62,539 nucleotides of DNA from a virus (IMGVR_UViG_3300032167_000057:68886-131424); one strand, 5' to 3'; positions 10,500 to 38,680 are shown, counted from the first letter of the stretch. Translations and numbers: made by a program. Notes: generated by a model from the letters alone, not told the origin.

Positions 10500-11621
10500 T
10501 AATTTTGAGTCGCCTTACACAGCGATGTGTATTGAATAACAAGGTGAACCTATAAATATAGGGTGTACATTACACGTTTAGGAGTTGTAGGAAATGACGA
10601 CTAGGTAATGTGCTAACTGGGAAAATCTAAATATATAACAATACTATGCGAAATATTTTACAAGACAGGATGTGATTATATAAGTTTATATAAAACATAT
10701 GGAATTTATGGAATAAGAAATAAAACCAATAATAAAGTCTACGTTGGTAAGACAGAAATGAATTTTGGTGATAGAAAAGATTGTCACTTTACAAGTCTTC
10801 GTGGTGGATATCATATTAATCCACACCTACAAAAATCTTTCAATAAATATGGAGAAGATAACTTTGAATTTATTGTATTGTACGAATGTAAAGATGGCGA
10901 AGATACTCATATAGTTAATAAGTTGGAACAAAAATATATTAAATTATATAAAGATAAAGGTCTTGCCTATAATATTGGAGATGGTGGCGATGGTGGTCAT
11001 AATCTAGGAAAACATTTATCAGAAGAAACCAAAAGAAAAATTGGTAATAAAAATAGAATTAATATGACAGGCCGTAAAGCCACTAATGAAACTAAAAAAA
11101 GGATGTCTGAATCACAGAAGAAACGATTTAAAAATCTTTCCGATGAAGAACGAAAAGAATACGGCAGACAAATCTCTGAATATGCTTCTGGATATCAATG
11201 GTCAGCAGAAGCAAAGAAAAATTTTTCAAAAATCCAACAAACTAAACCTAATGGTGCAAAATATGACGTAGAAACAGTAAAAGAAATAAGACGCTTACAT
11301 AAAGAAGAAAACTTAACATACACAGAAATTTCAAATCTACTAGATATACCAAGACCTGCTGTGTATTTAATTGCTACATATAGAAGATGGAAACATATCG
11401 CATAGTCCATCAAGACTGTTATATACAAGATAATCCAGTGCCAAGCTAAAATGGTGACATTTTAGAAGGTCTAACGAGCAAGATATACCGTCTCATTGAG
11501 ATGATGAAATCTGTATGATTAAGGTGAAATTCCTTAATCAGAAGTGCCTTGCCCTCATTATTATGAGGTGATGATGTGCTCTACTCCCCTAATAAATATC
11601 GGGAAACCGAGGGTATAAAGG
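10500..11621 (+). mobile_element. group I intron in RNAP gene, with GIY-YIG homing endonuclease
   Basis: Exon ends in U; P1 CGAU/GUCG (10509-12) with U.G pair; P7 GAGCA(11476)/TGCTC(11577); ends in G; joined frame reads QQNAID|KAKGIICKPMPAEW. Confidence 0.9.
10680..11405 (+). CDS. GIY-YIG homing endonuclease with NUMOD3-like repeats (track start 10758 misses the GIY-YIG motif)
   Basis: In-frame upstream extension gives YGIYGIRNKTNNKVYVGKT; HLSEETKRKI and ATNETKKRMS repeats; likely ATA start after AGGATGTGA. Confidence 0.88.
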   Translation: MSLYKTYGIYGIRNKTNNKVYVGKTEMNFGDRKDCHFTSLRGGYHINPHLQKSFNKYGEDNFEFIVLYECKDGEDTHIVNKLEQKYIKLYKDKGLAYNIGDGGDGGHNLGKHLSEETKRKIGNKNRINMTGRKATNETKKRMSESQKKRFKNLSDEERKEYGRQISEYASGYQWSAEAKKNFSKIQQTKPNGAKYDVETVKEIRRLHKEENLTYTEISNLLDIPRPAVYLIATYRRWKHIA

Positions 11622-12479
11622 AAAGCCAAAGGTATTATTTGTAAACCAATGCCCGCCGAATGGAAACGTATCAAGCCAAATGAAATTTTGGAGACCGATG
11701 AAGCGTGCACTATATTACAAAAACAATTTAACCAGCGTATAGTTGCTGATAAATATCCATATTTCTTTATCTATAATTATCTTTCATTAAAACAAGAATT
11801 TGATAGATATTTTAAAACAATGAATTATATTTGTTATGATGAATTATCTGTTTTCTTATCTGATTTAATTTCTAAATATAAAAATCATGAATTTTTATCC
11901 CCAGTAGAACAAAATTTTCTAAATAATTATTTTAAAAATTGCCCAGTTTCTTATGCCCCTTCAATAATGAATAGACTTTGTTGGCAATTAGAACAAAAAT
12001 TAGGAAAAACCAAAAAAGATAATAAAGAGTTTGATTATGCATTATTATTGTCTGAAAATAAAATAAATAAACGTATTAAAAAAGAAGTCGAAGCAATTTA
12101 CGACGAATATAAGCGACGTTCTGTTGAGTGTCAAGTTCGTTTACAAAGACATCAAATTACTAAAGACGAGTATACTGCTTTTTATACTTTAACTCTGGAT
12201 TGGTTTAAACAACAAATTTTTAGTATTTGTAATAATGCCGAAACAGTAACGGATGCGTTAATTGATTTGTGTTACACCCATTCAAATTCAAAACAGTTTG
12301 TTTGGGATGTATGTGGTGAACAAATCATTCGTAATTTATTAAATAGACATAATAATTTAATTTCTTATCCAGTACAAGACCGTGAAGGTGAAATTGAATT
12401 TTGGGGAGAAAAATTTAGTATGCGTACTATTAATTATGATAATTATATGGATATGTCAGAGGAGGAAAAAAATGGGTAA
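11622..12479 (+). CDS. yonO: YonO-like RNA polymerase, exon 2 (spliced product about 930 aa)
   Basis: Frame open from 11622 and in phase with exon 1; no SD before track ATG 11649. Confidence 0.88.
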   Translation, partial: KAKGIICKPMPAEWKRIKPNEILETDEACTILQKQFNQRIVADKYPYFFIYNYLSLKQEFDRYFKTMNYICYDELSVFLSDLISKYKNHEFLSPVEQNFLNNYFKNCPVSYAPSIMNRLCWQLEQKLGKTKKDNKEFDYALLLSENKINKRIKKEVEAIYDEYKRRSVECQVRLQRHQITKDEYTAFYTLTLDWFKQQIFSICNNAETVTDALIDLCYTHSNSKQFVWDVCGEQIIRNLLNRHNNLISYPVQDREGEIEFWGEKFSMRTINYDNYMDMSEEEKNG

Positions 12480-13239
12480 ATTTATATTAAATGAAAAAAA
12501 ATACGTAGAAGAAGAACTTCTAACGGGTAAAAATATCCACGCAAAAATGTCTCGTGCTATGTTATTACTGTCCAAGTATTATATATATGAATTACATAAA
12601 ACTGATGATGAAGTTCGACAGTTAATAAAGGAATTATATAATAATTATGATTCACCTATCACTTCGGAATATTTATTAAAACAATTAGATTATGCGATTT
12701 CTTATGCACATGAGAGACCTTTAGTGTGTATTGATTATATTAATATTACAAAAGAAGAACAGAAAATAATTAAAAAAATTGAAAATGAGGAATTACAAAA
12801 ATTATTATTTACAATGCTTTGTTTATGTAAATTCCATGATTTCCGCAATTCTGAAAATAATCATTGGGTAAATTACTTTTCAGATGGTATTGCGCCCTTA
12901 TTTGCATTAGCTAATGTGAGAGGCTCTTCTGAAGCCAAATTAGAATTGTTACGTGAGTTGCGAATCGCGGGATTTATTACTCGCACAAATAGTTATGCCC
13001 GTTATAATTGGCAAATTAATATTGTAGATGAAAATCCAGATAGTGAAGTGTTTTATCAAGTTGTCAACATGGATAATCTTGGCTATCAATGGCTGGTTGC
13101 CACTAAACAGGGTAAATTTTGTGCGGATTGTGGTCAATACATTCCTAAATATAAACCACGAAAAGGACATATGAAAACTAGAAATGAGGCACAAATTCGT
13201 TATAAATATTGTAAAAAATGTCGTGAAAAACGCAAATAA
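12472..13239 (+). CDS. hypothetical protein with C-terminal zinc finger, coupled to RNAP gene
   Basis: SD GGAGGA before ATG 12472 overlapping RNAP stop; CADCG...CKKC. Confidence 0.8.
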   Translation: MGKFILNEKKYVEEELLTGKNIHAKMSRAMLLLSKYYIYELHKTDDEVRQLIKELYNNYDSPITSEYLLKQLDYAISYAHERPLVCIDYINITKEEQKIIKKIENEELQKLLFTMLCLCKFHDFRNSENNHWVNYFSDGIAPLFALANVRGSSEAKLELLRELRIAGFITRTNSYARYNWQINIVDENPDSEVFYQVVNMDNLGYQWLVATKQGKFCADCGQYIPKYKPRKGHMKTRNEAQIRYKYCKKCREKRK

Positions 13240-13474
13240 TGGGTAGTACCACTACCCTTATTTGTAGCGTAAATATGTGTGATTTTTATAGTATAAAATT
13301 TTTTTCATACTTTGAAAGAGAGAGAATAAAGTATCATTATTTTTCTCTCAATAATACGCTCCGCGAGTAAGGCGCACGCTGATGTCTATATTAAATTTAT
13401 TATAATAGTGCGTACACAGGAGCGATTATAATAGGAAATAATAAAAACGGATATAAAGGATTAAAAGGAACAAC

Positions 13475-13822
13475 ATGAGTACAACAAAAAATATAAAAGC
13501 GATTACTTATAAAGAATTTCTTAAAAATATTTCCCAAAGAACTGGTTATGTCCAGACAGATGTGGCTAATATTTTTGATTCTATGAGTGATTTATTATTA
13601 GAAGAATTTTTAAAATTGGAAGAAAATGAAGAACTGAAAATTAAAATCTGTGGCTGTATTATGGTTACTGGAAAATATGTGCCAGAACGCGTAATGCCAA
13701 ACAATGTAGTCTCTTCTCTTCCACTTAAAACACCAGAAAATATTATTATTAAAGCGAAATTTGCTAATAGATTTAAAGATAAATTAAAACATGAATATCG
13801 TAGATTACGAGGAATTGAGTAA
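13475..13822 (+). CDS. HU/IHF-like DNA-binding protein
   Basis: ITYKEFLKNISQRTG helical N-terminus, beta-arm ending IKAKFANRFK; position after RNAP as in SPbeta. Confidence 0.75.
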   Translation: MSTTKNIKAITYKEFLKNISQRTGYVQTDVANIFDSMSDLLLEEFLKLEENEELKIKICGCIMVTGKYVPERVMPNNVVSSLPLKTPENIIIKAKFANRFKDKLKHEYRRLRGIE

Positions 13823-13921
13823 ATATCCTTTCTTTTTTTCTTTTTGGTTGGAGGTCGTATCACTTTATAAAGTGATGCGGCCTTTATTTTATGTGGATAT
13901 TGGATATAAAGGAGTTAATAC

Positions 13922-14887
13922 ATGGATTTATTGAGACAGCCGAATGAAACGGCTTTTGAACATAAAGTTAGATTGTGTAAAGCAAAAATAAATAAAGAAA
14001 TTAAAGTGGATTGGAATACTATTGTAGATATTCTTGAGTTGGACGAAAGCGCAGATTCTTTGCGTCATAAAGGGTATGCTTATGCAGAATATGATGATTA
14101 TATTTTAAGTGATAAAGGTGTAGCTACAAGAATTTTAAGTATTTCTGATTTACATATTCCATTCCAACTAGATTATACTTTGTTATCAGATTATAAAAAC
14201 ATAGATATTTTACAAATCAATGGTGATGTGGTTGATTGTCAGGCACTTTCGAAATGGAGTAAACAATATAGAATTTCTCCTATGGAAGAATTAATTCTTG
14301 GTAGACAATATTTAATTGATTTACTTGAATACTTAAAACCTAAAAAAGTAGTTTGTAATTATGGTAATCATGATAAAAGATTTGCAAATTATTTTGCCAA
14401 AAATTTAGATACAGATATTTTAGAACTATTACCAGATACGTCATTAGAATTAATATTTAAAGATGGTTTTTATCATTATGATAAACGCAGTAAATCTAAA
14501 AGCTGGTATGAACCACTGTGTAATATTTTTACAGATATTGAAATTATTTATATCGACGATTGGAAATGTAAAATTGGTAAAACATGGTTTGTCCACCCCC
14601 TTGCATTTCGGTCTGGAATTTTGGCAACTGCAAATAAAGCTAAAGATTATTTACAAGATACAGATAAAGAATCTTTCGATTGTGTTGTAATGGCACATAC
14701 ACATTCTATTGGAGATAGTAAATGTGGTTATGTACGTTTATTTGAACAAGGCGCTTTTGCCAATGTAGCCAAAATGGAATATATGGATGGAAAATTATCA
14801 CGACCACAACAGATGGGTTATGCATTAATTTGTCAAGATAAAGATGGAAATTTGATTTCAGATAAATCTAAAGTTGTGGCTTTATAG
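13922..14887 (+). CDS. calcineurin-like metallophosphoesterase
   Basis: SDLH, GDVVD, GNHD and AHTH motifs. Confidence 0.85.
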   Translation: MDLLRQPNETAFEHKVRLCKAKINKEIKVDWNTIVDILELDESADSLRHKGYAYAEYDDYILSDKGVATRILSISDLHIPFQLDYTLLSDYKNIDILQINGDVVDCQALSKWSKQYRISPMEELILGRQYLIDLLEYLKPKKVVCNYGNHDKRFANYFAKNLDTDILELLPDTSLELIFKDGFYHYDKRSKSKSWYEPLCNIFTDIEIIYIDDWKCKIGKTWFVHPLAFRSGILATANKAKDYLQDTDKESFDCVVMAHTHSIGDSKCGYVRLFEQGAFANVAKMEYMDGKLSRPQQMGYALICQDKDGNLISDKSKVVAL

Positions 14888-14917
14888 GAATACAAAGATT
14901 AAAGAGGTAAAGGAATT

Positions 14918-15328
14918 ATGAGAGTTATTACAAATGTTAATGAGGTTGTAGAATTAATGTCTCAAGAAATTGATATCGAGAGTTTAAGTTCTACCCTTGT
15001 TGCAGATTTTGATTATATTTATAAAACATTAAAGAAATTTTTAACATATGACAATGTTGAATTGACTTATTGTGACGTTGATACATTTGAATATGACAGA
15101 GAATATGGCTTAACGTTACATTTAGATATTTGCCGTAATGTGTGGGAAATTGATGTATGGCAAACATATAATGAAGATAAAAATATGTATTATGGAATGG
15201 ATGGATTTGTTATTTATCACGAGGATGTTAACAGTAAATGTATGCTGGATATGTTAAATAATAAAACACTTCGTCCATCTAGAACAGAATGGATTGTAAT
15301 TGCTAATTCTCCTCATTTAACGCGTTAA
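14918..15328 (+). CDS. hypothetical protein
   Basis: ORF track; SD AAGGA. Confidence 0.75.
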   Translation: MRVITNVNEVVELMSQEIDIESLSSTLVADFDYIYKTLKKFLTYDNVELTYCDVDTFEYDREYGLTLHLDICRNVWEIDVWQTYNEDKNMYYGMDGFVIYHEDVNSKCMLDMLNNKTLRPSRTEWIVIANSPHLTR

Positions 15329-15348
15329 GTTAGAAGGAATGGTGAATT

Positions 15349-16503
15349 ATGGCGAAACATATGGTGCGAATTGAAGATGAGCTTCTTCAACAAGCAGTAG
15401 AAAAAGAAAAAGTTATAGAAGCAAAGGCAAAAGCAAAAGCTCGGGCCGCTGCTAAAGCAATTATAAACAATCCTGAAGATGATTATAAAAAATATACTTT
15501 AACTGAATTACGAAAAGCATATGGCAATCTTTTAAAAGATTATAAAAAAGAATGTCAAAAAAATGCTGATACCGCTTATTGTCATTGGTGCGGTGAGTGG
15601 TTACCTAAAGCTAAATTTTATAAAAGTTCTACATACGCTTCTGGCTTATGCCCTGCTTGTAAATCTTGTCTATTTAAAATCGCCACAAATTATAACGACA
15701 AAACTAAAGAAGTAGCTGAAACAAGACAATCTATACAGAGCGCATTAAAAATTATGAATAAACCATTTTCGAATGAATTATATAATTCCGCTATTCGCGC
15801 TATTAGTGATGAAACTTCTTTAAGTCGTCGTGGTAATATCTGGGGACAATATGTAACCATGGTTAATAGTTTGCCACAATATCAAGAACAAACTTGGCTG
15901 GATTCTGATTTGGAAATTTTTGAAGAAGATGGCGCTAATGAATTAGAAACAAAGAAAATTACAAAGCGAATGAAAGAATTTTGGGGTTATGAATTTTCAG
16001 ACCGAGATTTAATTTTCTTAGATACACAATATAAAGATTGGGTAACTCGACATGAGTGTAATACTAAAGCGCAGGAAGAAGTATTTAAGAGATTGTGTTT
16101 TATTCAGTTAAAATTATTAAATGCCGATAAGGTAGGGGCTCAAACCAAAGATTTAGACCGAACCTTCCAAGAATTGTTGGATACGGCTAATTTAAAACCA
16201 AAACAAAATGCTTTGGATACTTTATCAGATGCTCAAACACTGGGCACATTAATAGATAAATGGGAAAACGAACGACCTATTCCTGAAGTGGATGATGATT
16301 TAAAAGATGTTGATAAGATTGGTTTATATTTAGATGTGTTCTTTAAAGGACATCTGGCTAAAATGCTTAAATTAAAAAATCCACTGAGTAGATTATATGA
16401 CAGTTTTATACATAAATATACTGTTACCAAACCTGAATATAGTGAAGAAGAAGACACAGAAGGTTTGTTTGAACAGATATTTGGAATGTCGGATGAAGAT
16501 TAA
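15349..16503 (+). CDS. zinc-finger protein, possible terminase small subunit
   Basis: CHWC...CPACKSC; stop overlaps terminase start; small-subunit call is positional only. Confidence 0.55.
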   Translation: MAKHMVRIEDELLQQAVEKEKVIEAKAKAKARAAAKAIINNPEDDYKKYTLTELRKAYGNLLKDYKKECQKNADTAYCHWCGEWLPKAKFYKSSTYASGLCPACKSCLFKIATNYNDKTKEVAETRQSIQSALKIMNKPFSNELYNSAIRAISDETSLSRRGNIWGQYVTMVNSLPQYQEQTWLDSDLEIFEEDGANELETKKITKRMKEFWGYEFSDRDLIFLDTQYKDWVTRHECNTKAQEEVFKRLCFIQLKLLNADKVGAQTKDLDRTFQELLDTANLKPKQNALDTLSDAQTLGTLIDKWENERPIPEVDDDLKDVDKIGLYLDVFFKGHLAKMLKLKNPLSRLYDSFIHKYTVTKPEYSEEEDTEGLFEQIFGMSDED

Positions 16504-18290
16504 TGGCTAATCTGAAAAAGAAAACTGCTACCGAGGTCGTTCAAGAAAAATCAGAAAAAATAATGAATGGAATAGCTTTATGGGCTGGTTTTTATAGAGA
16601 AAATCCACATCGATTGTGTAAAGATTATCTTAATATTACCTTAAAACTATTCCAAAAAATATTGTTATATGCCATGATGCATAACAATTATTTTATGTAC
16701 ATCGCTGCTCGTGGCCAAGGCAAGACTTGGCTTACAGCATTGTTTTGTGTTGTGCGATGTATATTATTTCCAAAAACAAAAATATGTATCTCTTCTGCTA
16801 CTCGTCCGCAGGCCAATGAGGTACTGTTAAAAATCAAAGATGATTTTTGTAAAAATTACACTTGGGGTTCATCAAATTTATGCGCCGAAATTTCCAATAT
16901 TAGTATAGGACAAAATAATGCAGTAATTTCATTTAAAAACGGTTCTTGGATTAAGGTTGTGACTGCTTCAGATAGTGGACGTGGTTCTCGTGCAAACATT
17001 TTGATTTGTGACGAATTTAGAATGGTTGACTTAGATATTATTAATACAGTTTTAAGAAAATTCTTAACCGCTCCAAGAACACCAAACTATCTAAATAAAC
17101 CAGAATATGCTCATCTTGTAGAACGTAACAAAGAAATATATATGTCTTCTGCTTGGTATCAAAGCCATTGGTCGTATGCTAAGGCTCAAGCATATTTTGT
17201 TAATATGATGGATACTGCTAAAAAATATTTTATATGTAGTCTACCATATCAAATTTCAATTAAAGAAGGTTTATTATCTCGTTCGCAAATTGAAGATGAA
17301 TTCAGTGAAGCAGACTTTGACCCCGTAAAATTTTCTATGGAGATGGAAGCGTTATTTTTTGGAGATACTGACGGTTCTTTCTTTAAATTTGAAGATTTAG
17401 TAAAACGTCGTAAATTAAAAAAAGCTTATCCTTCGTTGGAATTAAGTGTAACAAAAAATATAAAAGTACCTGATTTGGTTACAAATGAAAAAAGAATTTT
17501 ATCAGCCGATATTGCTTTATTATCTTCTAAAAAAAACAAAAACGACGCAGCTAGTTTAATGATTAATAGCTGTATACCGTCTAATAATAATAGGTATATT
17601 GGTAATTTTTTCTTTATGGAAAATCATGAAGGTATGACAACTGATGAATTAGGATTACGTATCATGCGCCTATTTTATCATTATAAATGTACTGATTTAG
17701 CTCTGGACGTTAAAGGTGTGGGCGTTGGTATATTTGATTTTATTATCAAAGACCAATATGACCCTGAAACTGGTGAAACGTATGGAGCTTTAACTTTGCA
17801 TAAAGATTATACTGATGCAAAGTATCAAGTATATACTGAGCGTTGTAAAGTAAAAAATGCGCTCAAGGTAATACATCCTATTTTTGGTTCACCTTCATTT
17901 AATACAGAGTGTTGTACTCTATTACGAAGTGGAATTCAAGAAGGACGTTTAAATTTATTAATATCTGAATTTGAAGCAGAAGAAGTTTTAAAAACTGAAA
18001 TTAAAGGGTACTCAAAATCGAATGTTGTTGAACAAGCGACATATAAAGCGCCTTATGTACAAACTACCATGGCTATTAATGAATTAATATATTTAGACCA
18101 TGAAGTAAAAGGTACTAATATTAAATTAATGGAAAAATCAGGCGCTCGAAAAGACCGTTATTCTTCTATGGCTTATAACTATTATGTTCAAGTTATATTA
18201 GAACGTAAATTACGTCCGCAGAAAAATACGGAACAGAACATATTAAATCAGCTTCAATTTAGACAGGCTACTAAACATAGATTTTTTTAG
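16503..18290 (+). CDS. terL: terminase large subunit
   Basis: Walker A AARGQGKT, Walker B ILICDEF, RNase H-like nuclease motifs SADIA and KDRYS. Confidence 0.95.
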   Translation: MANLKKKTATEVVQEKSEKIMNGIALWAGFYRENPHRLCKDYLNITLKLFQKILLYAMMHNNYFMYIAARGQGKTWLTALFCVVRCILFPKTKICISSATRPQANEVLLKIKDDFCKNYTWGSSNLCAEISNISIGQNNAVISFKNGSWIKVVTASDSGRGSRANILICDEFRMVDLDIINTVLRKFLTAPRTPNYLNKPEYAHLVERNKEIYMSSAWYQSHWSYAKAQAYFVNMMDTAKKYFICSLPYQISIKEGLLSRSQIEDEFSEADFDPVKFSMEMEALFFGDTDGSFFKFEDLVKRRKLKKAYPSLELSVTKNIKVPDLVTNEKRILSADIALLSSKKNKNDAASLMINSCIPSNNNRYIGNFFFMENHEGMTTDELGLRIMRLFYHYKCTDLALDVKGVGVGIFDFIIKDQYDPETGETYGALTLHKDYTDAKYQVYTERCKVKNALKVIHPIFGSPSFNTECCTLLRSGIQEGRLNLLISEFEAEEVLKTEIKGYSKSNVVEQATYKAPYVQTTMAINELIYLDHEVKGTNIKLMEKSGARKDRYSSMAYNYYVQVILERKLRPQKNTEQNILNQLQFRQATKHRFF

Positions 18291-18305
18291 AAAAGGAGAC
18301 ATAAT

Positions 18306-22363: not shown

Positions 22364-22854
22364 ATGGCAACAGCAAATAAAGTATTTTTCGGATTAGACA
22401 ATGTTCAGGCTGTATTTTCTAAAGAAGATTGTTCTTACGCTTCTTTCTCAAAATTAATGTATGATACAGCTGTTGAAAAGTTCGAAGGTGGTATTACTAA
22501 AGAACAGGCTAACAAGAAAATTAGAGAGGTTATGTTTGAAATTATTGGTCTTCCACAGGACGCTTCAAACAGAGAAATTAAGAAAGCTCTCAAATCTACT
22601 GCTGTTAGAGAAGCTGTATTTGCAGTTATCGAAGAGACAGTTGAAGATTTGTTAGTAACAGGATGGGGTAATGACCCGTTCTTCAAACAGTTTGTTGAAT
22701 ATAAGTCAGTTGCTGACGGTGATACAAACGAATTCTATACAAAAGATGAAGTAATCTTAACTTTATCTGAACTTGCTGGTAACCATCATAACTTGATTAG
22801 ACAGAGATTGGGTGCTGGTAAGGCATTTAATGTTCATACTTCATGGTACGGGGT
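22364..22854 (+). CDS. major capsid protein, exon 1
   Basis: Position in head module; ends HTSWYG-GT at predicted splice site. Confidence 0.85.
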
Positions 22855-23254
22855 TAGAAATATAGCTCCCCTTGCAGTGTAAACTGCTTGGCAATAATTA
22901 ACGCATTGAAATGCTGGAAAACCCTAAAGGTAATTAAGCTACAACGTAATGGTGAAATAAACATAGGCGTGAATGCGGTGAAAACAGAAAAAATTAATTA
23001 CATGGGAACGAGGTGTAAACCCCTGTTCTTTTTTTAATGGGTAATCAGCAGGTAAGTTCCGAATAGGAAAAACCTCAACGACTATTCCTTTAAGGAAGTA
23101 GGGTCATAAGCGATTGATGACTCGAAGTGGTGCGCCCCTCAATCGAGGGTGAAGATATAGTCTAATCTTTAATGAAAATTAAAGGGTTTTAATAACCGAC
23201 ACGGAGTAGCGTCCGCAGATAATATTATATAAGTTATCGTGTTAAATAAAAATG
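22855..23254 (+). mobile_element. ORF-less group I intron (400 nt) in major capsid gene
   Basis: P1 GGGGU/GCUCC; AATGCTGGAAA, AATCAGCAGG, TCAACGACTA(23080) and AAGATATAGTCT(23158) core motifs; ends in G; joined frame SWYGV|KIYAEYELFMAGRVDW. Confidence 0.93.
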
Positions 23255-23879
23255 AAAAATCTACGCAGAATATGAACTCTTCATGGCTGGTCGTGTAGAC
23301 TGGGCAGAATTCGTTCAGAAAATCTATGAAGCATATGACAAGAAAGTAAATGACATGCTTTATGGTGCATTTACTAACATTGGTGATTCTTTACCAGCTG
23401 GTACACAGTGGGTTAAGACATCTCCATTGACAGCATCTACAAAAGATACATTTGATACATTGGTTGAAGATGTACAGATGGTTAATGGTTCTGATGTTGT
23501 TATCATGGGTACACGTTCAGCTTTAGCTAAGTTAAGTTCTTTAGATGAAATTGACTGGGTATCTGATGCTATGAAGCAGGAAAGATATACAACTGGCAGA
23601 CTTGGCTTCTATCAGGGTATTACATTATTCGAAATCCCTCAGGCTTTCGTTAAGAATGATACAACTCAGAAGCTCGTTGATAATACTAAGTTATATATCA
23701 TGCCAGTAGCTGATAACAAGTTTATCAAGATGTTCAACGAAGGTGAAACACAGATTAAAGAAGTATCTGATGGTAACACAAACGTTGATAAGACTATTGA
23801 ATACGAATTCCAGACCAAGATGGGTGTGGCTGCTGTAATCAATAGACTGTTCGGTATCTGGAATATCGAAACACCGTAA
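23255..23879 (+). CDS. major capsid protein, exon 2 (spliced product 371 aa)
   Basis: 491+625 nt = 372 codons in frame; HK97-like C-terminal half. Confidence 0.85.
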
Positions 23880-28161: not shown

Positions 28162-28196
28162 ATGGCACAGACAAAATTTGACATTAATAACTTCGT
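28162..28196 (+). CDS. major tail (tube) protein, 35-nt exon 1
   Basis: SD AAGGAGG then ATG GCA CAG ACA AAA TTT GAC ATT AAT AAC TTC GT (MAQTKFDINNFV). Confidence 0.8.
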
Positions 28197-28552
28197 TGAT
28201 TTGATGTAGTCATGCATCATCACAGCGCACCATGTTTGGAAACGGCATGGTGAAATGTTCCTTAATTGCTGGAAACCCCTTAGAGTCTCACAAACTACAA
28301 CGTAAGAATGAAATATATCTAAGCGTGAATGTTTGAAAATTGTGAGAATTGGGCAATCAGCAGCCAAGCCTCGAATAGAGGAAGGTTCGACGGTCAGATG
28401 TAGTGATTGTAGGATAAGTATCCGAAATGGGAACGACCTAAACCATTAAACATGGCATGGTAATGATATGACCTCGACTTATATGAAAGTATAAGAAAAC
28501 TGTATTTATACAGTCTTTATTAGCATAACGAACTAATAAAGTAAGATAATCG
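28197..28552 (+). mobile_element. ORF-less group I intron (356 nt) in tail tube gene
   Basis: AATTGCTGGAAA and AATCAGCAGCCAAG motifs; P7 GGTCA(28392)/TGACC(28469); ends in G; joined frame NNFV|IDHVLRGTMVST; P1 not cleanly resolved, so the 5' site is less certain. Confidence 0.88.
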
Positions 28553-29369
28553 AATTGACCACGTACTCAGAGGTACTATGGTATCTACTGCTGACAGTTC
28601 AGTATTATGGAGTTTAACACAGATTCAGTCTCCGTCTTTATCCATGACTTCAGAAACAGTAGATGCAACTGATGCTCTTGGTACAACAATTATGACTTTT
28701 GAAAGAGCCAAATCCGCTACTTTCTCTGGTGAAAATGCCATTTTAGACTTGGGCTTATTAGCTGCTCAGGCTGGTACAGTGAAAGAATATTCTGGTTCTG
28801 ATAATAAGATTTTAGCACCTATTTTCGATACAATTACTTTAACAGCACAGAACATTTCTGATGGTAAAGTTGAATTATCTAAGCTTCCTGTATCAGTACA
28901 GGCTGATGGTGCGGCTGCTAGTTCATTAACAGAAATCTTCAAGCTTTCTTCTGATAGCACATTAGGCCAGTCTTTCAAGGTTGGTACTGCTGCTTCTGAT
29001 ACAGAATTTGCTATTGCTGCTGACTCTAAGGAATTACAGTTGCCAACAGGTTTGGTTGCAGGTGACCAGATTTTTGCAATGTATGACTATGAAGCAGATG
29101 ACGCAGAAGGTAATGGTGCTGTACAGATTGTTAACAGTGCTTCTGAGTTCCCTAAGAATGGTAAGTTTATTCTTGAAGTATTGGGCGCAGATGTTTGCGA
29201 TTCCACAACTAAGGTTTATGCTTACTTAATCTTCCCGAACTGTAAGTTAAGCTCTGCTACAGATTTAACCCTTGAAACAGAAATGAGTCAGGGATTTGAA
29301 ATCGTGGCTAACCAGAGCTACTGCTCTAAGACAAACGAACTTTGGAGATTAGTAATCCCTGAAGCGTAA
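28553..29369 (+). CDS. major tail (tube) protein, exon 2 (spliced product 283 aa)
   Basis: 35+817 nt = 284 codons; Ala/Thr/Ser-rich beta protein between neck genes and TMP. Confidence 0.75.
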
Positions 29370-29762: not shown

Positions 29763-29839
29763 GCATGTAATTAAGGGTGTTATACAAAAATAGTTTTTGC
29801 GACACCCTTATTTTTTTTTCGGATATAAAGGAGATAATA

Positions 29840-30091: not shown

Positions 30092-30112
30092 TTGTATAAA
30101 TAGAGGGTAAAT

Positions 30113-31066
30113 ATGGCTACAAGAAGTAAACGAATTACTATGTATGACGCGGAAAAATTAAAGTTAATTAATCCTGAGTCATTAAAAATGATTCATAAAT
30201 ATAAACAGGATATGAGTATCAGAGAACTCTCTCCTAAAACTGTATACAATTATTTAACTGATTTAAACCAATGGTTAATTTATGTATATGATAATCAGTT
30301 TAATCAGAGCGTATTAGAACTGAACGAGGATGACATTACAGAGTTTATCTATTGGTGCAAAATCCAAGGAAATAACACTGAACGTATTAAACGTAGAATG
30401 TCTTCTATTTCAGCGTTTTATATATATTTACATAAAAAACGCTTGATAAAGGAAAACCCGATGACTTTTATTGACCGCCCTAAAAAGGGAAGTCCAGTTG
30501 TCACACAAACGTTTTTAACACTAGAACAAGTTGAATTAATGAAACAAAAATTACAGGAGCATGGAGATTTGCAGTTGCAAACCTATGCTCTTTTTTCATT
30601 ATCTACTATGGCTCGTGTAAATGCTGTTGCTAATTTAAAATGGGAACAAGTAGATTTAGAACGTCGTACTTGTACTAATGTATTAGAAAAAGAAGGTAAA
30701 TTGGTTGATTTATTCTTTTCTGAAGAAGTGCGTGATTTATTAATTGCAATTAAGGAAAAACGTGCTAATGAAGGAATTGATGACCACGGATGGGTATTTA
30801 CTACTCCACAAGCAACTGCTACTACTCCTATTCAAAATAGTACATTGAACGAATGGTGTAAAAAGATTGGAGCAATGATTAATGTACCAACTTTACACTG
30901 TCACGATTTTAGGCATTCTGGTGCGACTTTGTTAAAGAATTTGGGTATGCCATTAGAAGACGTATCTGCTTTATTAAATCATAGTGGTACTGATGTCACT
31001 AGAAAATTTTATATCAAAGAAGATACGAGTCGTTTATCTGCCGCAAAAGACCGATTTAAAATTTAA
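30113..31066 (+). CDS. tyrosine recombinase/integrase within tail module
   Basis: ARVNAV (R), EKEGK (K), HDFRH, LNH, FY catalytic residues; N-terminal SAM-like domain. Confidence 0.92.
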   Translation: MATRSKRITMYDAEKLKLINPESLKMIHKYKQDMSIRELSPKTVYNYLTDLNQWLIYVYDNQFNQSVLELNEDDITEFIYWCKIQGNNTERIKRRMSSISAFYIYLHKKRLIKENPMTFIDRPKKGSPVVTQTFLTLEQVELMKQKLQEHGDLQLQTYALFSLSTMARVNAVANLKWEQVDLERRTCTNVLEKEGKLVDLFFSEEVRDLLIAIKEKRANEGIDDHGWVFTTPQATATTPIQNSTLNEWCKKIGAMINVPTLHCHDFRHSGATLLKNLGMPLEDVSALLNHSGTDVTRKFYIKEDTSRLSAAKDRFKI

Positions 31067-31536
31067 TGACTAAATATATTAGTTTTGACCAGAGTACAAC
31101 TGCTACTGCTTATTGTATATGGATTGATGGAAAATATTTTCAACACGGAGTTATCAATCTCAAGAAAATCAAAGAGGCAGATTTGAGATTTGACCAAATG
31201 GCTCGGTCTATTATACAATTATTAGAACAGGAAAAGCCACAAGTAATTACTATTGAAGATACCGCCTTACAGACAAATGCTAAAACACTGAAAGATTTGG
31301 CTCAATTACAAGGTGTTATTATGGGTTATTGCTTGGCAAATAATATTAGTTTTACAGTGTATTCGCCAACTAAATGGCGTGCTATTTTACATTTTAAAAC
31401 TGGTAAAGGGGTGAAGCGCCCTGAATTAAAACAGCAGGCAATTGATTATGTGTTAGAAAAATATAATATAACTGCTTCTGAAGATGAATGTGAAGCTATT
31501 GCAATTGGGTCTGCTGTTTTGTTAGAATATCAATAA
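31066..31536 (+). CDS. ruvC: RuvC-like Holliday junction resolvase
   Basis: SFDQSTTATAY, ITIED and EDECEAIAIG acidic motifs. Confidence 0.8.
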   Translation: MTKYISFDQSTTATAYCIWIDGKYFQHGVINLKKIKEADLRFDQMARSIIQLLEQEKPQVITIEDTALQTNAKTLKDLAQLQGVIMGYCLANNISFTVYSPTKWRAILHFKTGKGVKRPELKQQAIDYVLEKYNITASEDECEAIAIGSAVLLEYQ

Positions 31537-31559
31537 AGGATTTAAAGGAAAGAAGGATT

Positions 31560-31766: not shown

Positions 31767-31782
31767 ATAAAACCATTATTTT

Positions 31783-31815
31783 AAACCTCTCTGTTTTATA
31801 ACAGGGAGGTTTTTT
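31783..31815 (+). terminator. intrinsic terminator
   Basis: AAACCTCTCTG-ttttata-CAGGGAGGTTT-TTT. Confidence 0.75.
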
Positions 31816-31851
31816 ATTGTAAAAAATAAGGATATAAAGGAGTTTATAATT

Positions 31852-32412: not shown

Positions 32413-32438
32413 ATATAAACGGATAAAGGGGTGAGGGA

Positions 32439-33086
32439 GTGAGTACAAAATTAAATATTGTAACTAAGGCTACGGATAAGTATTATACCAGTTTTAGGGA
32501 ATCAATGAAGCGCGAATTTCTTAAACAGGCCCAAAAGGCTAAACATGCAATTACTGAAGAATTATCCAATCGTGTTGCTAATTATGTGCGAGATGAAGCT
32601 GCTAAAATGTACGAACAAATCATATATGATTATTATATGGATTATACCCCTTCTGTTTATCAACGAACATATAATTTACAAACATATCATCAAACTATTG
32701 ATGGCCAAACATATCTCGATACATTTATTCCACCAATTATAACTCATATTAATACAGGTTATGCTATTAAATTTAGAAAATGGTATACCAGCGTTTCAAT
32801 GCGCCCATATCATGTGACAACCAAATGGCAAAAACGGCATGTTACTCCAGAAAATGTATTAAATACGGTTATGGATGGAATTAGAGGTATTGACTATCAA
32901 TTATGGAAACCAACTGAAGCAAGAGCTTTTACAGATACTGCTTCTCCATTTACCTTTCGTGGTACACCAAACGATATGTTTCAAAAATTTGAAAGACATG
33001 TGGGTTTATATTTTGAACGTTACATGATTGCAGAATATTATGCTCACGAGTCGGTGTACGACAAAATATGGAATAAATATCTATAG
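32439..33086 (+). CDS. hypothetical protein
   Basis: ORF track; directly upstream of TMP. Confidence 0.7.
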   Translation: MSTKLNIVTKATDKYYTSFRESMKREFLKQAQKAKHAITEELSNRVANYVRDEAAKMYEQIIYDYYMDYTPSVYQRTYNLQTYHQTIDGQTYLDTFIPPIITHINTGYAIKFRKWYTSVSMRPYHVTTKWQKRHVTPENVLNTVMDGIRGIDYQLWKPTEARAFTDTASPFTFRGTPNDMFQKFERHVGLYFERYMIAEYYAHESVYDKIWNKYL

Positions 33087-33101
33087 AAAGGAAGTGGTTA
33101 A

Positions 33102-35459
33102 ATGTCTACAACAATAGGCCCTAGTGGTGGTTTTGATAAAGCGTTAGATGATATTTTGGGTAAGAAATTTGACCAATCATTTGATAAATTTATAAAGAAA
33201 CAGGCTCAAAAAGAATATACTGTGCCTACCAATATCAATGTTCGTCTTGTAGACAATATTGAAAAAGTACTTGAAGAAGAACGTAAAGAAATTGATGCTC
33301 AGATTCAACACTTTAAGAAAACTATTCAGTCAAATATTAATTCTTATACAAGACACGCTGGTTCGTTGCCACAATCTGTAAATAGATGGATGGGGCGGCA
33401 AAGCAATCAAGAGGATTTACGCAAATCAATAGCTCAAGAATCTGAAGCAGTCTACGGTAGAGCAACACATTATAAACATGATAATTTAAATGCGGAATTA
33501 AAAGCCGCTATTGAAGAACGTACTAAATTAATACGTTATTTACAAGCTCAAGACGACCAGATAAATAATATTAATTATGCTGGTAAAACGACTAAAGGAC
33601 AAATCGCAAAGGCGGCCGCTGAAGAAGAAGAAGCTTTAAACCGCAAATATTTAGCGATTCAGAGAATATATGAAATCGAGCAAAAATATCGTAAACAGTT
33701 ACATGCAAATGACCGACATGCTTTAGGTGTTGAACAATATCAAGCTGGTAGGCAGTCTATTGAACAATACCGTGGTCAAGCGGCACAACATGGTGTCAGT
33801 GCTTATGAGGCTTTGCTCAAATCTAGAGTGGATAGTGCGCAAGGAATGTTTACTCAGTTAGCGCCTCATTTACAGGCCGCTGAGTCTGATGCAGAACGTG
33901 GTCAAATATTGGCTGATTTTAAACAGGGTGTTGAAACTGCAAATTCATTAAGTAAACAAGCACTTGATGGTTTATCTGCTGTTGCAAAAGGTATTGCTCA
34001 AGTTCAAATACCTGACGAAGTAATTGATACTGAAGCAGTAAATATTAGTACAGATGAAATTCAAGAATCTATGCAGGCTACTACTGCTACAGAACAGAAT
34101 ACACAAGCAATAAAAGAGAATATTGAAGCTAAACAAAAGTTAGATTCTCAAGAAGATGAATTAATTGCTGACCAATCGGCTTTAAAATCTGCTATTGATT
34201 CGGCCACTAAAGAATTACAAGACCAAGGACAAGAATTGGCCAATACTGCTCAACAATATAAAAAGGTTGGAGATGCGGCTGATGAAGCGAATTCTAGCAT
34301 ATTGAAACAGACCAAAAAAAGCTCTAGGTCTGGTAATGGGACAGGCGGTGGGTCTGGTTCTGGTAGTACTGGTAAAAAAGAATTAAGTGATAAACAGAAA
34401 TATCTTGCGTTGGTTTCTAAAGAAACGCGTGAGTTAAAGAATTTATTACGTTTAAAAGTAGAATTGGCGAACACTTCTTCTACTGATAAAAATACAATTA
34501 AGACATATGAAAAATTAATAGATTTTTCTGAACAACGTCGTACTGTTTTACGAGCAGAGGGTCAAGCATTATTAGCTAATGTTGATGCAGAGGAACAAGA
34601 AAATTTAGCTCTGCAACGTAAAGCAAAATTACAAGAAGCTTCGATTTCTTATACTCAAAAACTAGCATTAATATCTGCCAAAAAAGAAGATAAATCTATC
34701 AATGCCGCTAATGCTGAATTGGATAAAGCTTTAAAAAAGCAACAACGGTTTGGCACAGTAGTTAAACAGCAAATTGATAATTATCAGATGGCGGCAGATG
34801 CAATACAAGAATTATTATCGACACAAAAATTATTGGGTAGTCCAAGTATTGATACCGCAAAATTAAATTCTGAAGGTATTGCTACTTTTACCCATAAAGT
34901 AAAAACTTCAAGTAACGAAGTACAGACTTGGGCCTTTACTTGGGACGCGGCCACTGGTCAAATATATCAAAACACAAAACGAATTACCACTGTTGGTAGT
35001 AGATTAGAAAAATTCATGGATAGTCTCCGAGGCAAATTTACTGCTTTGGGGACTTATTTATTGAGTTTCGCAAGTTTTTATGATATTGTAAACGCTTTTC
35101 GGTCAGGTATTACAACTATACGTGAGTTGAATACCGAATTAGGTAATATGCGAAAAGTAGCAGATGAATCATTGTCTGTTTTGCAAGAATATCAACTAGC
35201 GGCTCATGATATAGCTTTTGAATTAGCTTCTACTTCTAAACAGGTAATGAGTTCAACCACAGACTTCTTACGTCTTGGCTATTCGTTACAAGAGGCAGCT
35301 TCACTTGCTCAAGATGCTAACATTTATGCAAATGTTGGTGATATGCAAATAGATGAAGCCACTGAACATATGATTTCATCTGTTCAAGCTTGGAAAAGTG
35401 AATTTAACAGTGCTGTTGAAGCATCAACTGCTTTGATTGATAAGTATAATGAAGTGGGT
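33102..35459 (+). CDS. tape measure protein, exon 1 (786 codons)
   Basis: Helical Ala/Gln/Lys-rich; TP901-type core LRLGYSLQEA...IDKYNEVG. Confidence 0.88.
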
Positions 35460-36930
35460 AAACAAATTATTGCCCAAACATACAGTAATGTATGGTGCTA
35501 CTTAATAGTGGCATAGTAGATAACTATATCGGTTAAAAAATGGGGACATTTTAGACCGAGGAAAGACTTAATGTTTACTATCGTCAAAGGGAGGCGATAG
35601 TTATTTCAAAAAAATTAGATTTAACAAATCAAAAATTTGGTAAATTGTTAGTCATTGAAAAAACAAAATCTCCTAATAAAAAACATAAAAGAATATATTG
35701 GTTGTGCCAATGCAATTGTGGAAATACATATGTTACAGATACTACTTCTTTAACTTCTGGTGCTACAACTCAGTGTTTAGAATGCGCTCATAACGCATCT
35801 GGTATCGGTAGAAGAAAAGATTTAACTGGACAAAAATTTGGTCATTTAACTGTTGTAAAAATGTTATATAATTACAACAATACTAAACGAACCAAATGTT
35901 TGTGTGATTGTGATTGCGGTACGATTAACCATTTAACTTCTCCAGATTCATTGGCTCGTGCAACAGAAAATACATCTTGTGGATGTCAAAAAGCAAATTA
36001 TGTTAGAAAATATTGTGCGCGTGACATAGATGGACAACGTTTTGGAAAATTGATTGTATTAGAAACGATTTGGGATAATGGAAAACCTAAAGTACGTTGC
36101 AAATGTGACTGTGGTAATGAAATTATATTAAACAAAAATGATGTACAAAGTGGTCACACATTATCTTGTGGATGTTTACATAAAGAAGTTACATCAAAAA
36201 CAAATACAAAAGATTGGACTAATATCGTTTCTGATTATGGAGTAGAATTTATTAGTCAATCTAGACAGAATAAAGCTGGACAGTGGTTATGGTATTGTAA
36301 ATGTCCTATTTGCAATGATATATTTGAAGCTTTGCCAGCAAAAATTATGGGAGGTCATACTACATCATGTGGATGTAAAATTCAATCATCAGGTGAAAGA
36401 TTAATAAAAAAGACTTTAGATGAATTGAATATAAAATATATCCAACAATATAGTTTTAATGACAACGTATATAAATATAAATTAAAATTCGACTTCGCAT
36501 TATTAAATGATAATGACGAAGTTTTTTGTTTGCTTGAATATGATGGTAGACAACATTATGATTCAATTGAATTTTTTGGTGGAGAAGAACAATTTATAGA
36601 AACTCAAAAAAGAGATTTAATTAAAGATGAATATTGTAAAAATAATAAATTATTATTAATACGTTTACCTTATTATTTAACAACAGATGAAATTCAAGAA
36701 AAGATAGTAAACATTATTTATCCGTAACGACTACAGGGTATATATGGTAACATATGTACTGAAGTTATCCACCCTACTCTTCTGTTTATGAAGATAAGAG
36801 GGTGTAATATATAGTCTGGACTCACGCTATAATCTAACAAAATATGAAACGTGAGAGTTAGCCAGAAATGACTAACCGCTATATTTATATATAGTCAGTA
36901 ACTTAGAATATAAGTGAAAGTAACAGAACG
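35460..36930 (+). mobile_element. group I intron 1 in TMP gene, with endonuclease ORF
   Basis: P1 GGGU/GCCC(35472); P10 AAUUAUU/AACAAUU; P7 GACTA(36729)/TAGTC(36812); ends in G; joined frame DKYNEVG|NNYAITSADIG. Confidence 0.92.
35603..36727 (+). CDS. intron-encoded putative homing endonuclease (CxCxCG repeats plus Vsr/DUF559-like nuclease domain)
   Basis: Repeated DLTGQKFG.L.V...CxCDCG units; C-terminal KFDFA...EYDGRQH; likely ATT start after GGGAGG. Confidence 0.8.
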   Translation: MSKKLDLTNQKFGKLLVIEKTKSPNKKHKRIYWLCQCNCGNTYVTDTTSLTSGATTQCLECAHNASGIGRRKDLTGQKFGHLTVVKMLYNYNNTKRTKCLCDCDCGTINHLTSPDSLARATENTSCGCQKANYVRKYCARDIDGQRFGKLIVLETIWDNGKPKVRCKCDCGNEIILNKNDVQSGHTLSCGCLHKEVTSKTNTKDWTNIVSDYGVEFISQSRQNKAGQWLWYCKCPICNDIFEALPAKIMGGHTTSCGCKIQSSGERLIKKTLDELNIKYIQQYSFNDNVYKYKLKFDFALLNDNDEVFCLLEYDGRQHYDSIEFFGGEEQFIETQKRDLIKDEYCKNNKLLLIRLPYYLTTDEIQEKIVNIIYP

Positions 36931-37641
36931 AACAATTATGCAATTACTTCAGCAGATATCGGTTCAGCCATGGAACGTTCTGCTGCCGCTTTAAAAGCTG
37001 GTGGTAATACACTTAACGAATCAATTGCGTTAATTACTGCTGGTAACCTTATACAACAAGATGCTGATACTACTGCGAATGCTTTAAAGGTTATGTCACT
37101 GAGAATTCGTGGCAGTAAAGCAGAATTAGAAGCCATGGGCGAAGAAACTGATACTCTTGCTGATTCTACTTCTAAACTGCGTGATGAAATTAAAGCATTA
37201 ACTGGTGTAGATATTATGCTGGATGATGATACGTATAAATCAACCACACGTATTATTCAAGAAATTGGTGCAGTTTTTGATAAACTTACTGATGTTTCTC
37301 AGGCTACAGTTTTGGAAAAACTTGCGGGCAAGACACGTTCATCAACAGTAGCTGGTTTGCTTGAGAATTATGAAGTTATTGCTCAGGTAATGGAAACAGC
37401 AGCTAATGCTGAAGGTTCGGCCCAAGAAGAAATGAGCCGATATATGGAAACAATTGATGCTCACTATAATCAACTATTGACAAAATGGGCTCAATTTTGG
37501 GATGTTACCTTAGACACCGATGCAGTTATTGCCATTATAGATGCTTTAACCAATTTGTTGGATAAAGGTATTGAGGCTGGTGGTTTATTAGGTATATTAG
37601 GCGATTTGCTTCCAGCTTTGGCGATATTTAAAGGCAGCGGT
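36931..37641 (+). CDS. tape measure protein, exon 2 (237 codons)
   Basis: In frame with exon 1; TALKVMSLRIRG and EKLAGK TMP-core motifs. Confidence 0.85.
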
Positions 37642-38051
37642 AGACCTAAAATGTTTGGTCTCAAATATGCCGCTATTATTATGTGCCCTTATAGATATAT
37701 AAGTTTTCATAATAAGCTTATTGAAATACAATAAGTAAAAATGCTCGATATGGTCTGAATAGACTTGTGTTTATAATTACACAACTGGGAAGCGGGTTAA
37801 AATTATAGTACTCTCCTATTTCAGTGATGGAATAAGGTTCGTGAAAATCTATAATCTCTCGTGGTCAGCAGGTAAGCTTCTCTCTGAGAAGAAACCCCAC
37901 TGTAATGAAATGGGCATTACACATTAGATGAAACGCTGTGTGTAAAATAGACATTCGAAACTACACCAAGCACGATGGTTAATTATAAGTAGGAATCTAT
38001 CTTCTACTTTCGTGTGTGCGAAACTTGTTTTACTCAAGTCGATAGAAAAGT

Positions 38052-38081
38052 AAAAAAAGACACCGTGTTGTACAGTGTCTT
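38052..38081 (-). terminator. terminator of antisense cargo gene
   Basis: Minus strand GACAC-tgtacaacacg-GTGTC-T7, 16 nt after cargo stop. Confidence 0.7.
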
Positions 38082-38097
38082 AATTATTGATATATAC

Positions 38098-38604
38098 TTA
38101 GAAATTACTTCCGCATTTATTACAATGCCATTGTTTACCGATTTTACCACTACCAAAACCAAACAAACTAAATGAAGTCGCTCGTCCAACCATAGAAATC
38201 TTCTTAGTATCTTTTGATTTACAATATGGACATTCTGCTGAGTCTGGAATAAATTGTGCCAATGCTTGCAAGGATTGGGTCATTCCTTCTCTTTCAGGTA
38301 TATATTCTCTTGGTACTTCTTTGTTATCTACGATTTCAGAAATTAAGTGTATTACATCAAAAATATCTAGTTCTATTACTGAATGAATTTTTGCTTCTAT
38401 TTTATCAGTATTTTCTGAAGAAGATTGACCATGTTTTAATATAAATGCAAATTCATCAGTTAAATCAAAATCAACCCCTTTAATATTACAAATGGTATTT
38501 TTATTTTTAACAAGTAAACGTATTAATGGATATCCACAATGAACACAATTTTCAGTTTGGTCAGAAATTTCTTTTTTACATTCTGGGCATATAATTAAAC
38601 TCAT
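38098..38604 (-). CDS. double zinc-ribbon protein, antisense within TMP intron 2
   Basis: CPEC..CVHCG N-terminus; CPYC...CNKCG C-terminus flanking a Gly-rich hydrophobic patch; SD AAGGTGG. Confidence 0.85.
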   Translation of the reverse strand: MSLIICPECKKEISDQTENCVHCGYPLIRLLVKNKNTICNIKGVDFDLTDEFAFILKHGQSSSENTDKIEAKIHSVIELDIFDVIHLISEIVDNKEVPREYIPEREGMTQSLQALAQFIPDSAECPYCKSKDTKKISMVGRATSFSLFGFGSGKIGKQWHCNKCGSNF

Positions 38605-38632
38605 ATACTATTACCACCTTATTTTTATGTTT

Positions 38633-38662
38633 AATATACCACATTTTTAAAGTGTTTCGCAA
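38633..38662 (-). promoter_or_regulatory. sigmaA-type promoter of cargo gene
   Basis: Minus strand TTGCGA-18 nt-TATATT with TGn extended -10. Confidence 0.6.
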
Positions 38663-38680
38663 CTTTAAATATATAGTTTG

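Follow-up and report, generated by a model that had tools for sequence, protein, structure and literature searches.

Group I introns in the RNA polymerase and virion genes of a gut-Clostridia-type phage, including a probable divergent intron in the tape measure gene

Results

Five insertions interrupt four genes of the rightward block

The DNA analysed here (the window, 62,539 nucleotides, one strand) comprises bases 68886-131424 of the 131,424-bp IMG/VR virus record IMGVR_UViG_3300032167_000057, in which direct terminal repeats are present, and forms the right half of the genome of a gut-Clostridia-type phage, 131 kb long, whose RNA polymerase (RNAP) is of the YonO type. At the protein level, its nearest annotated relatives are the Enterocloster phages PMBT24, CB457P1 and CB473P1, Clostridium phage c-st and Bacillus phage BUCT082. 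From 6.2 kb on, the + strand holds most of the window's open reading frames (ORFs), among them the RNAP, terminase, portal, capsid, tail tube, tape measure and baseplate genes. A first-pass annotation had placed group I introns in the RNAP, major capsid and tail tube genes and, twice, in the tape measure protein (TMP) gene. Each of the five interruptions is real and is found at, or close to, the place it gave, with a canonical catalytic core confirmed at each site except the second tape measure insertion (TMP-2). The intron models are as follows.

10500..11621, + strand, RNAP group I intron, 1122 nt (empty-site homologues; homologous introns at the same site)
22855..23254, + strand, capsid group I intron, 400 nt, no ORF (RF00028 79 bits, E 2e-18)
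28197..28552, + strand, tail-tube group I intron, 356 nt, no ORF (RF00028; junction fixed by homologues)
35460..36930, + strand, first tape measure group I intron (TMP-1), 1471 nt (contiguous TMPs, core motifs)
37642..38680, + strand, TMP-2 insertion, probable divergent group I intron, 1039 nt (in phase, P1, P10)

The splice models place a U before the 5′ site and a G as the last intron base in all five cases, and a U.G pair in P1 and a terminal G are present at every one of the five junctions. Joining the exons gives open frames of 930 aa (RNAP), 371 aa (capsid), 283 aa (tail tube) and 2481 aa (tape measure), with no internal stops, and homologues that lack the interruption run collinearly through four of the junctions (RNAP, capsid, tail tube and TMP-1). 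The covariance-model check that the first-pass annotation had proposed was run with RF00028 (gathering threshold 50 bits), which matched the capsid intron at 79 bits and the tail-tube intron at 46.7 bits and left the RNAP, TMP-1 and TMP-2 insertions unmatched.

The RNAP intron has homologues at the same site in related phages

The RNAP gene is divided into two exons, and its intron carries an ORF.

8565..10499, + strand, YonO-type single-subunit RNAP exon 1, ending ...QQNAID (Pfam RdRP PF05183, phrog_25339, tblastn)
10650..11405, + strand, ORF for a GIY-YIG/NUMOD3 homing endonuclease, located in the RNAP intron's P5 loop (PF01541, NUMOD3, phrog_314)
11622..12479, + strand, RNAP exon 2, starting KAKGIICKPMP (tblastn, phrog_35857)

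The tblastn match of exon 1 to PMBT24 and BUCT082 stops exactly at 10499, and the exon 1 and exon 2 matches abut in both genomes (...11396/11397... in PMBT24, ...5200/5201... in BUCT082), so that the 1122 nt between the exons are an insertion. P1 is formed by CGAU (10496-99) and GUCG (10509-12) with the U.G pair at the splice site, the terminal G is 11621, and P7 is formed by GAGCA (11476-80) and UGCUC (11577-81), in the contexts UAAC-GAGCA at J6/7-P7 and GAUGAUG-UGCUC at J8/7-P7′. The insertion site (...D↓K...GII; arrows mark junctions) is empty in PMBT24 and BUCT082 and occupied in CB457P1, CB473P1 and CB457P2. The introns of CB457P1 and CB473P1 are homologous to the one described here, with both halves 69-76% identical. 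Relative to these Enterocloster phage copies, P7 has undergone a double compensatory change (GACUA/UAGUC there versus GAGCA/UGCUC here), and P1 follows the change in the exon (GGAU/GUCC versus CGAU/GUCG). By blastn, the 3′ part of the RNAP intron also matches 201 records of Staphylococcus, Listeria, Enterococcus, Bacillus and Brochothrix phages.

No RF00028 match was obtained for the RNAP intron, even at permissive E-values on 10400-11750. The ORF-less CB457P1 homologue scores 46.8 bits with the same model, and the CB473P1 copy has an ORF; the RNAP and TMP-1 introns are missed by Rfam because ORFs of 0.75-1.1 kb interrupt their cores. The ORF of the RNAP intron matches PF01541 (43.7 bits), NUMOD3 and the phrog_314 homing endonuclease family (E 7e-33). 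Its first canonical start is at 10758, and the stretch preceding the GIY motif contains no ATG, GTG or TTG.

Two observations on related genomes are recorded here. Further RF00028 matches in CB457P1 (8285-8616 and 47745-48006) and CB473P1 (8371-8701) score 94-96 bits and 36.6 bits and carry no GenBank intron annotation. The c-st annotation presents the YonO homologue (c-st 163615-167548) as two genes, one N-terminal and one C-terminal, which are separated by a 355-aa 'hypothetical' ORF and a 370-nt gap, and an RF00028 scan of c-st found nothing.

ORF-less introns interrupt the capsid and tail tube genes

22364..22854, + strand, major capsid protein exon 1 (tblastn, phrog_4088)
23255..23879, + strand, major capsid protein exon 2 (collinearity, intact 371-aa product)
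28162..28196, + strand, tail tube exon 1, 35 nt encoding MAQTKFDINNF plus two bases of a Val codon (homologue N-termini)
28553..29369, + strand, tail tube exon 2 (AlphaFold model and Foldseek)

Capsid exon 1 matches annotated Bacillus phage major capsid proteins and Lactococcus 949-type structural proteins by tblastn. The capsid genes of Lactococcus phages P1048 and AM1 are collinear over the junction (...SWYG-V-KIYAEY), and the two exon matches overlap by one codon, as predicted because the Val codon is split gt↓a. P1 of the intron is GGGGU (22850-54) paired with GCUCC (22865-69), including U22854.G22865, the terminal G is 23254, and P7 is GACUA (23080-84) paired with UAGUC (23158-62).

The tail tube gene starts at ATG 28162, with AAGGAGG upstream. 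More than 20 uninterrupted homologues have the N-terminus MAxTxFDINNFVIDHVLRGTM, which fixes the junction as MAQTKFDINNF-V-IDHVLRGT and the intron as 28197-28552. Most homologues are uninterrupted at this site, and some gene calls begin with MVST, like that of this phage. The tail-tube intron matches RF00028 slightly under the 50-bit cut-off (46.7 bits, E 8.5e-11). P1 is CGU↓UG (28194-98) paired with CAGCG (28223-27), including U28196.G28225, and the terminal G is 28552. P7 is GGUCA (28392-96) paired with UGACC (28469-73), and the Rfam alignment puts these strands on the model's GACUA/UAGUC positions. An AlphaFold model (pLDDT 86) has tail tube proteins as its top Foldseek matches (8xkn_B, E 5e-12; 8ygm_A, the tail tube of the SPbeta-like phage SPR), with E-values of 5e-12 to 1e-11 and TM scores of 0.62-0.71. 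On the predicted fold, the tail tube identity given in the first-pass annotation is correct.

The first tape measure intron contains an HNH endonuclease ORF

33102..35459, + strand, tape measure exon 1, ending ...KYNEVG (phrog_4211, homologue alignment)
35597..36727, + strand, HNH-type homing endonuclease ORF within TMP-1 (phrog_374 E 2e-48, phrog_559, phrog_7140 'intron encoded nuclease')
36931..37641, + strand, tape measure exon 2, NNYAITSADI...FKGSG (tblastn, PF10145, phrog_4211)

Homologous TMPs align up to 35459 (PMBT24 residues 79-215, P0010 residues 205-344), and every tblastn match of exon 2 begins at 36931. The site is empty in PMBT24, P0010 and MT837120, in which the TMPs run contiguously over NEVG↓NNYAITSADI; PMBT24, for example, has ...VNEV-A-NNFAVSSGDIS where the phage described here has ...YNEV-G↓NNYAITSADIG. 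P1 is UGGGU (35455-59) paired with GCCCA (35472-76), the terminal G is 36930, and P7 is GACUA (36729-33) paired with UAGUC (36812-16). RF00028 gives no match to TMP-1. The stop codon of the HNH ORF abuts P7. At its other end, a strong AAAGGGAGG lies upstream, followed by ATA and ATT, and homology precedes the first canonical start, TTG 35645; the ORF therefore probably starts at ATA or ATT, as judged from the sequence.

TMP-2 is probably a divergent group I intron with an antisense gene

38098..38604, - strand, 168-aa antisense ORF encoding two zinc ribbons, within TMP-2
38681..43057, + strand, tape measure exon 3, ILRIINGLKD... (PMBT24, P0005 and P0007 matches)
L001, L007-L010, L012-L014, L016 and L017, loci of the TMP-2-site family (e.g. 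L010:1460-4284)

The tape measure frame is interrupted once exon 2 ends and is open again from 38669. Splicing at U37641/G38680 is in phase and would restore ...FKGSG↓ILRIING... in an intact 2481-aa product. Exon 3 is matched by PMBT24 TMP residues 1136-1300 at 40844-41404 and by the full-length TMPs P0005 and P0007. P1 has 6 bp (AGCGGU 37636-41 with GCCGCU 37669-74), the terminal G is 38680, and a 5-bp P10 (AAUAU 37664-68 with AUAUU 38681-85) lies in register next to the guide sequence. A P4′-P6 motif at about 37865-37896 resembles that of the capsid intron.

At this site, ten further phage records (nine IMG/VR loci and MT837120) also have an insertion, in which P1 is GCUGGGU/GCCCAGC and fully compensated. 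The RNA of this family has compensated helices with group I-like P3 (CCGAC/GUCGG), P7 (GAGCA/UGCUC), P8 and P9, and matches no Rfam family in the five loci searched. Reading extended as far as the 3′ exon in one locus, L010, where the insertion is about 2.8 kb long, with a highly structured 5′ RNA. A consensus TTGACA-17-TATAAT promoter comes next and drives a 112-aa coiled-coil ORF, which is followed by further ORFs, and an antisense zinc-ribbon ORF adjoins the 3′ exon. Forward genes with promoters of their own are thus part of this family.

The antisense ORF in TMP-2 appears to be a complete transcription unit, with a promoter-like, host-type site that has an extended -10 (TTGCGA-18-TGgTATATT, 38662-38633), a Shine-Dalgarno sequence and an intrinsic terminator (38081-38057). 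Its C-terminal 44 aa share 68% identity (E 7e-20) with the antisense ORF adjoining the 3′ exon in the L010-type insertion. It matches no PADLOC or NCBIfam family and has no nuclease motif. The TMP-2-type insertion and the ten-record family may together represent a group I lineage that is invisible to Rfam and carries promoter-driven cargo genes.

A catalytic core was sought in TMP-2 using features of the co-resident introns (J8/7 ending GAUR or UAUA and P7 with G...C). P8 was further required to be a hairpin lying just upstream, and P3′ to complement the sequence that precedes J3/4. A single solution was obtained, with P3 at 37730-36/38023-29, P7 as GUGUA (37940-44) and UAUAC (38093-97), and P8 at 38056-82, while any solution at all was found in only 2 of 400 dinucleotide shuffles. 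The shuffle criteria were fixed after the candidate had been seen, and the core model is tentative and suggestive only. If it is right, the terminator hairpin of the antisense gene would double as P8.

Several other candidates were rejected. A 5′ site at U37659 (P1 UGGU/GCCG), based on an MT837120 alignment through RPKMFG, was set aside because of the 6-bp P1 at U37641 and the equivalent 7-bp P1 in the family; the 'PKMxG' shared by TMP-2 and MT837120 is conserved intron sequence in the P1 loop. For P7, AACUA/UAGUU directly adjoins the terminal G and would make the guanosine-binding pair A-U, GCGAA/UUCGC spans the antisense gene and no P8 was found for it, and GUGUA/UACAC leaves only 17 nt between its strands.

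TMP-2 could instead be a decayed intron or another kind of insertion, leaving the tape measure as two polypeptides of about 1020 and 1450 aa or as a broken gene. A separate 1446-aa protein is indeed predicted by gene callers in this phage and two of its relatives, and the insertion contains a complete antisense transcription unit. The covariance models also weigh against an intron: RF00028 gave no match at a permissive E-value on 37620-38110 (491 nt), and model R1, built from the 3′ domain of the TMP-2-site family, scored 3.4 bits on TMP-2 (E 0.56), aligning as if P8 were missing. The TMP-2 core had no blastn match among phage records, no closer relatives were found in scans of viral, metagenome and genome contigs, and no uninterrupted close homologue spanning the junction was found. 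Minimum free energy folding (z = -2.0) was uninformative.

Loss of splicing is nevertheless unlikely, since the 6-bp P1 with its U.G pair, the in-register P10, the terminal G and the phase are all those of an intron, and ten other phage records have, at the same codon position, a structured RNA whose P3, P7 and P8 are group I-like and whose P1 is compensated. Exon 3 lacks a Shine-Dalgarno sequence, whereas the tail tube gene has AAGGAGG. Relatives with 80-86% protein identity share the split, and proteins of the relatives P0002 and P0003 begin MILQFITALKD at the point where exon 3 starts. A complete core model also exists and is rare in shuffles. TMP-2 is thus probably a functional intron.

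P7 varies by compensation within an intron lineage

The three P7 helices reported in the first-pass annotation (GAGCA/UGCUC, GACUA/UAGUC and GGUCA/UGACC) are present where it located them and are fully complementary. In the four canonical introns, P7 starts with G and ends with C, in the contexts AAC-G... and GAUR-.... P1 and P7 covary, including in comparison with the homologous RNAP-site introns of the Enterocloster phages, which bears out the claim of real ribozymes for at least these four. The accompanying claim of independent origin did not hold, as the RNAP and nrdD introns are 70% identical over 115 nt and the capsid and tail-tube introns 73.5% identical over 68 nt, with P7 varying within a lineage. 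By these identities, several of the introns are to be regarded as paralogues. P7 differs even between homologous introns at one site, so the difference reflects a pairing constraint and not separate origin. The covariation of P1 and P7 demonstrates purifying selection for splicing competence and gives no evidence of a regulatory role.

Introns also occur outside the late block

Two further introns lie outside the window on the opposite strand.

C1:26523-27407 (L003:4523-5407), - strand, nrdD intron with an HNH_3/NUMOD1 ORF
C1:33588-33810 (L003:11589-11811), - strand, DNA polymerase III alpha (dnaE) intron, ORF-less (RF00028 62.5 bits)

The nrdD gene is split between PF13597 (NRDD) profile positions 2-262, upstream of the intron, and 272-560, downstream. 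The genome therefore carries at least seven introns, which are not confined to late genes as had been proposed. The endonuclease-bearing introns are those of RNAP, TMP-1 and nrdD, and the capsid, tail-tube and dnaE introns are ORF-less. The 'late' label is further blurred for the RNAP gene itself, because the SPbeta YonO polymerase, as reportedly described by Forrest et al. in 2017, transcribes late genes and is not itself a late product.

Within the window, the first-pass annotation found no intron beyond the five, and RF00028 scans agree, giving nothing else apart from a 22-bit match at 46530-46701 inside a continuous ORF. A genome scan for the simple J6/7-P7/J8/7-P7′ motif gave 18 matches against 12 expected, which is not specific and cannot prove the absence of introns. 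Free-standing endonuclease-like ORFs at 44440-45519 and 54760-56163 (HNH/DUF968) split no gene, and the gene after the free-standing endonuclease ORF aligns to its PMBT24 homologue from the first codons. The ORF at 44440-45519 has DUF7487 and a Vsr-like DUF559, matches phrog_12131 'homing endonuclease', and lies between tail-fibre-like and baseplate hub genes. Two tyrosine-recombinase genes are present within the structural block (window 30113-31066 and 53377-54384), the first followed by a RuvC-like gene (31066-31536), and a tRNA gene (Rfam tRNA, 60.9 bits) lies at window 1735-1807 on the - strand, in the leftward block.

Discussion

The phage very likely bears a heavy load of mobile group I introns, homing elements that persist at conserved sites and exert no special control over late genes. 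Each intron would be transcribed within its host gene and fold into a P1-P9 core, and guanosine-initiated self-splicing would remove it to leave an mRNA encoding the normal protein. The introns sit in highly conserved codons, where homing endonucleases would recognise their sites and only precise loss would restore the gene. The RNAP, TMP-1 and nrdD introns, with their endonuclease genes, are probably mobile or were recently so, the capsid, tail-tube and dnaE introns would be ORF-less passengers, and for TMP-2 a divergent group I intron is most likely, with a peripheral region that now appears to carry an independently transcribed antisense gene. Sequences critical to function are known targets of introns (PMC2988022). 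The standard signature of homing elements combines endonuclease genes, a patchy presence among relatives and insertion in conserved codons of essential genes, whatever their temporal class (PMC2988022). The first-pass annotation had itself allowed that homing elements simply persist at conserved essential sites, and this caveat is the better explanation, and the textbook one (PMC2988022).

Some points weigh against this reading. Splicing of all the introns is predicted from structure, and the RNAP and TMP-1 assignments draw on motifs, junctions and homologous introns, not on a direct Rfam match. In neither of the two endonuclease ORFs in the window are the conserved N-terminal residues preceded by an ATG, GTG or TTG (window 10650-10760 and 35586-35650), which suggests non-canonical, weak initiation or decay and may mean that they are weakly expressed or decaying.

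The same start codons bear on another account of the endonuclease-bearing introns, in which they are kept as weapons in co-infection that would cut the intron-less RNAP, tape-measure and nrdD alleles of competing relatives, a role demonstrated for PhiPA3 gp210. In co-infection, homing elements may confer a competitive advantage (PMC11620839), and an intron endonuclease in a phage RNAP gene, PhiPA3 gp210, provides a precedent (PMC11620839). Endonuclease genes are present in the RNAP, TMP-1 and nrdD introns, and intron-free alleles circulate among relatives. With canonical starts missing from both in-window ORFs and no endonuclease in half of the introns, this role is conceivable by analogy but doubtful.

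In the first-pass annotation, the five splicing events were proposed as a possible checkpoint on virion production, sensitive to GTP, Mg2+ or RNA chaperones. On such a reading, with one event in the late-transcription polymerase and four in stoichiometric virion genes, the intron load would be maintained, at least partly, as a regulatory gate. Group I splicing needs guanosine and Mg2+, all the interrupted genes of the window are needed for virion production, directly or via late transcription, and the ribozymes are under selection to fold. However, nothing that ties splicing to a signal was found, and no observation here calls for a checkpoint. The nrdD and Pol III alpha introns lie in an oppositely oriented replication block, in early-type genes, so that intron distribution follows sequence conservation and not timing. 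At four of the five sites (RNAP, capsid, tail tube and TMP-1) there are relatives that manage with an allele lacking the intron, the endonuclease genes are a sufficient selfish explanation, and the capsid intron of Cluster J mycobacteriophages is spliced efficiently during late expression (PMC3706429). A checkpoint is accordingly very improbable; a regulatory gate would matter if true, but the present pattern is what selfish homing elements produce.

Recognition of the introns puts right the annotation of four essential genes, which gene callers had divided into eleven pieces, and adds the YonO-type RNA polymerase, the tail tube and, twice, the tape measure to the known hosts of phage group I introns. 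At least seven such introns in 131 kb make this gut-Clostridia phage lineage a rich reservoir of them. Phage introns that are divergent or bear an ORF are missed by Rfam, and their recognition needs protein collinearity together with P1/P7 logic.

Among known systems, the introns of CB457P1 and CB473P1, unannotated in GenBank, share the insertion point and homologous halves with the RNAP intron and differ in the P7 pair and in a P1 matched to their own exon. Staphylococcus phage Twort and other Herelleviridae reportedly have many group I introns, including several in one gene (Landthaler and Shub, 1999); they resemble the phage described here as Firmicutes phages with many group I introns and differ in phage lineage and host genes. 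The td, nrdB and nrdD (sunY) introns of T4, with I-TevI/II/III, are likewise phage IA-type group I introns in conserved essential genes (PMC2988022). Some of them carry GIY-YIG/HNH ORFs in peripheral loops, with the ORF's 3′ end reaching the core, and nrdD is interrupted in both phages. T4 has three introns, whereas at least seven are present here, in hosts that include virion structural genes and a YonO-type RNAP.

In PhiPA3, a group I intron with the HNH endonuclease gp210 interrupts the RNAP beta-subunit gene (PMC11620839), and is similarly a mobile intron at a conserved site of a phage RNAP gene. The polymerase of this jumbo phage is multisubunit and its endonuclease HNH, whereas here the polymerase is single-subunit and YonO/RdRP-like, with a GIY-YIG enzyme. 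The Cluster J mycobacteriophages LittleE and BAKA have introns in capsid and tail genes, for which efficient splicing was shown during late expression (PMC3706429), with a U at the end of the 5′ exon and a G at the end of the intron, as here. They differ in host phylum and in the introns themselves, and have one intron per phage in contrast to five in the late block of this phage. The LittleE capsid intron contains an ORF on the opposite strand and so provides a precedent for the antisense gene of TMP-2 (PMC3706429), with the difference that the antisense ORF is endonuclease-like in LittleE and encodes a zinc-ribbon protein in TMP-2.

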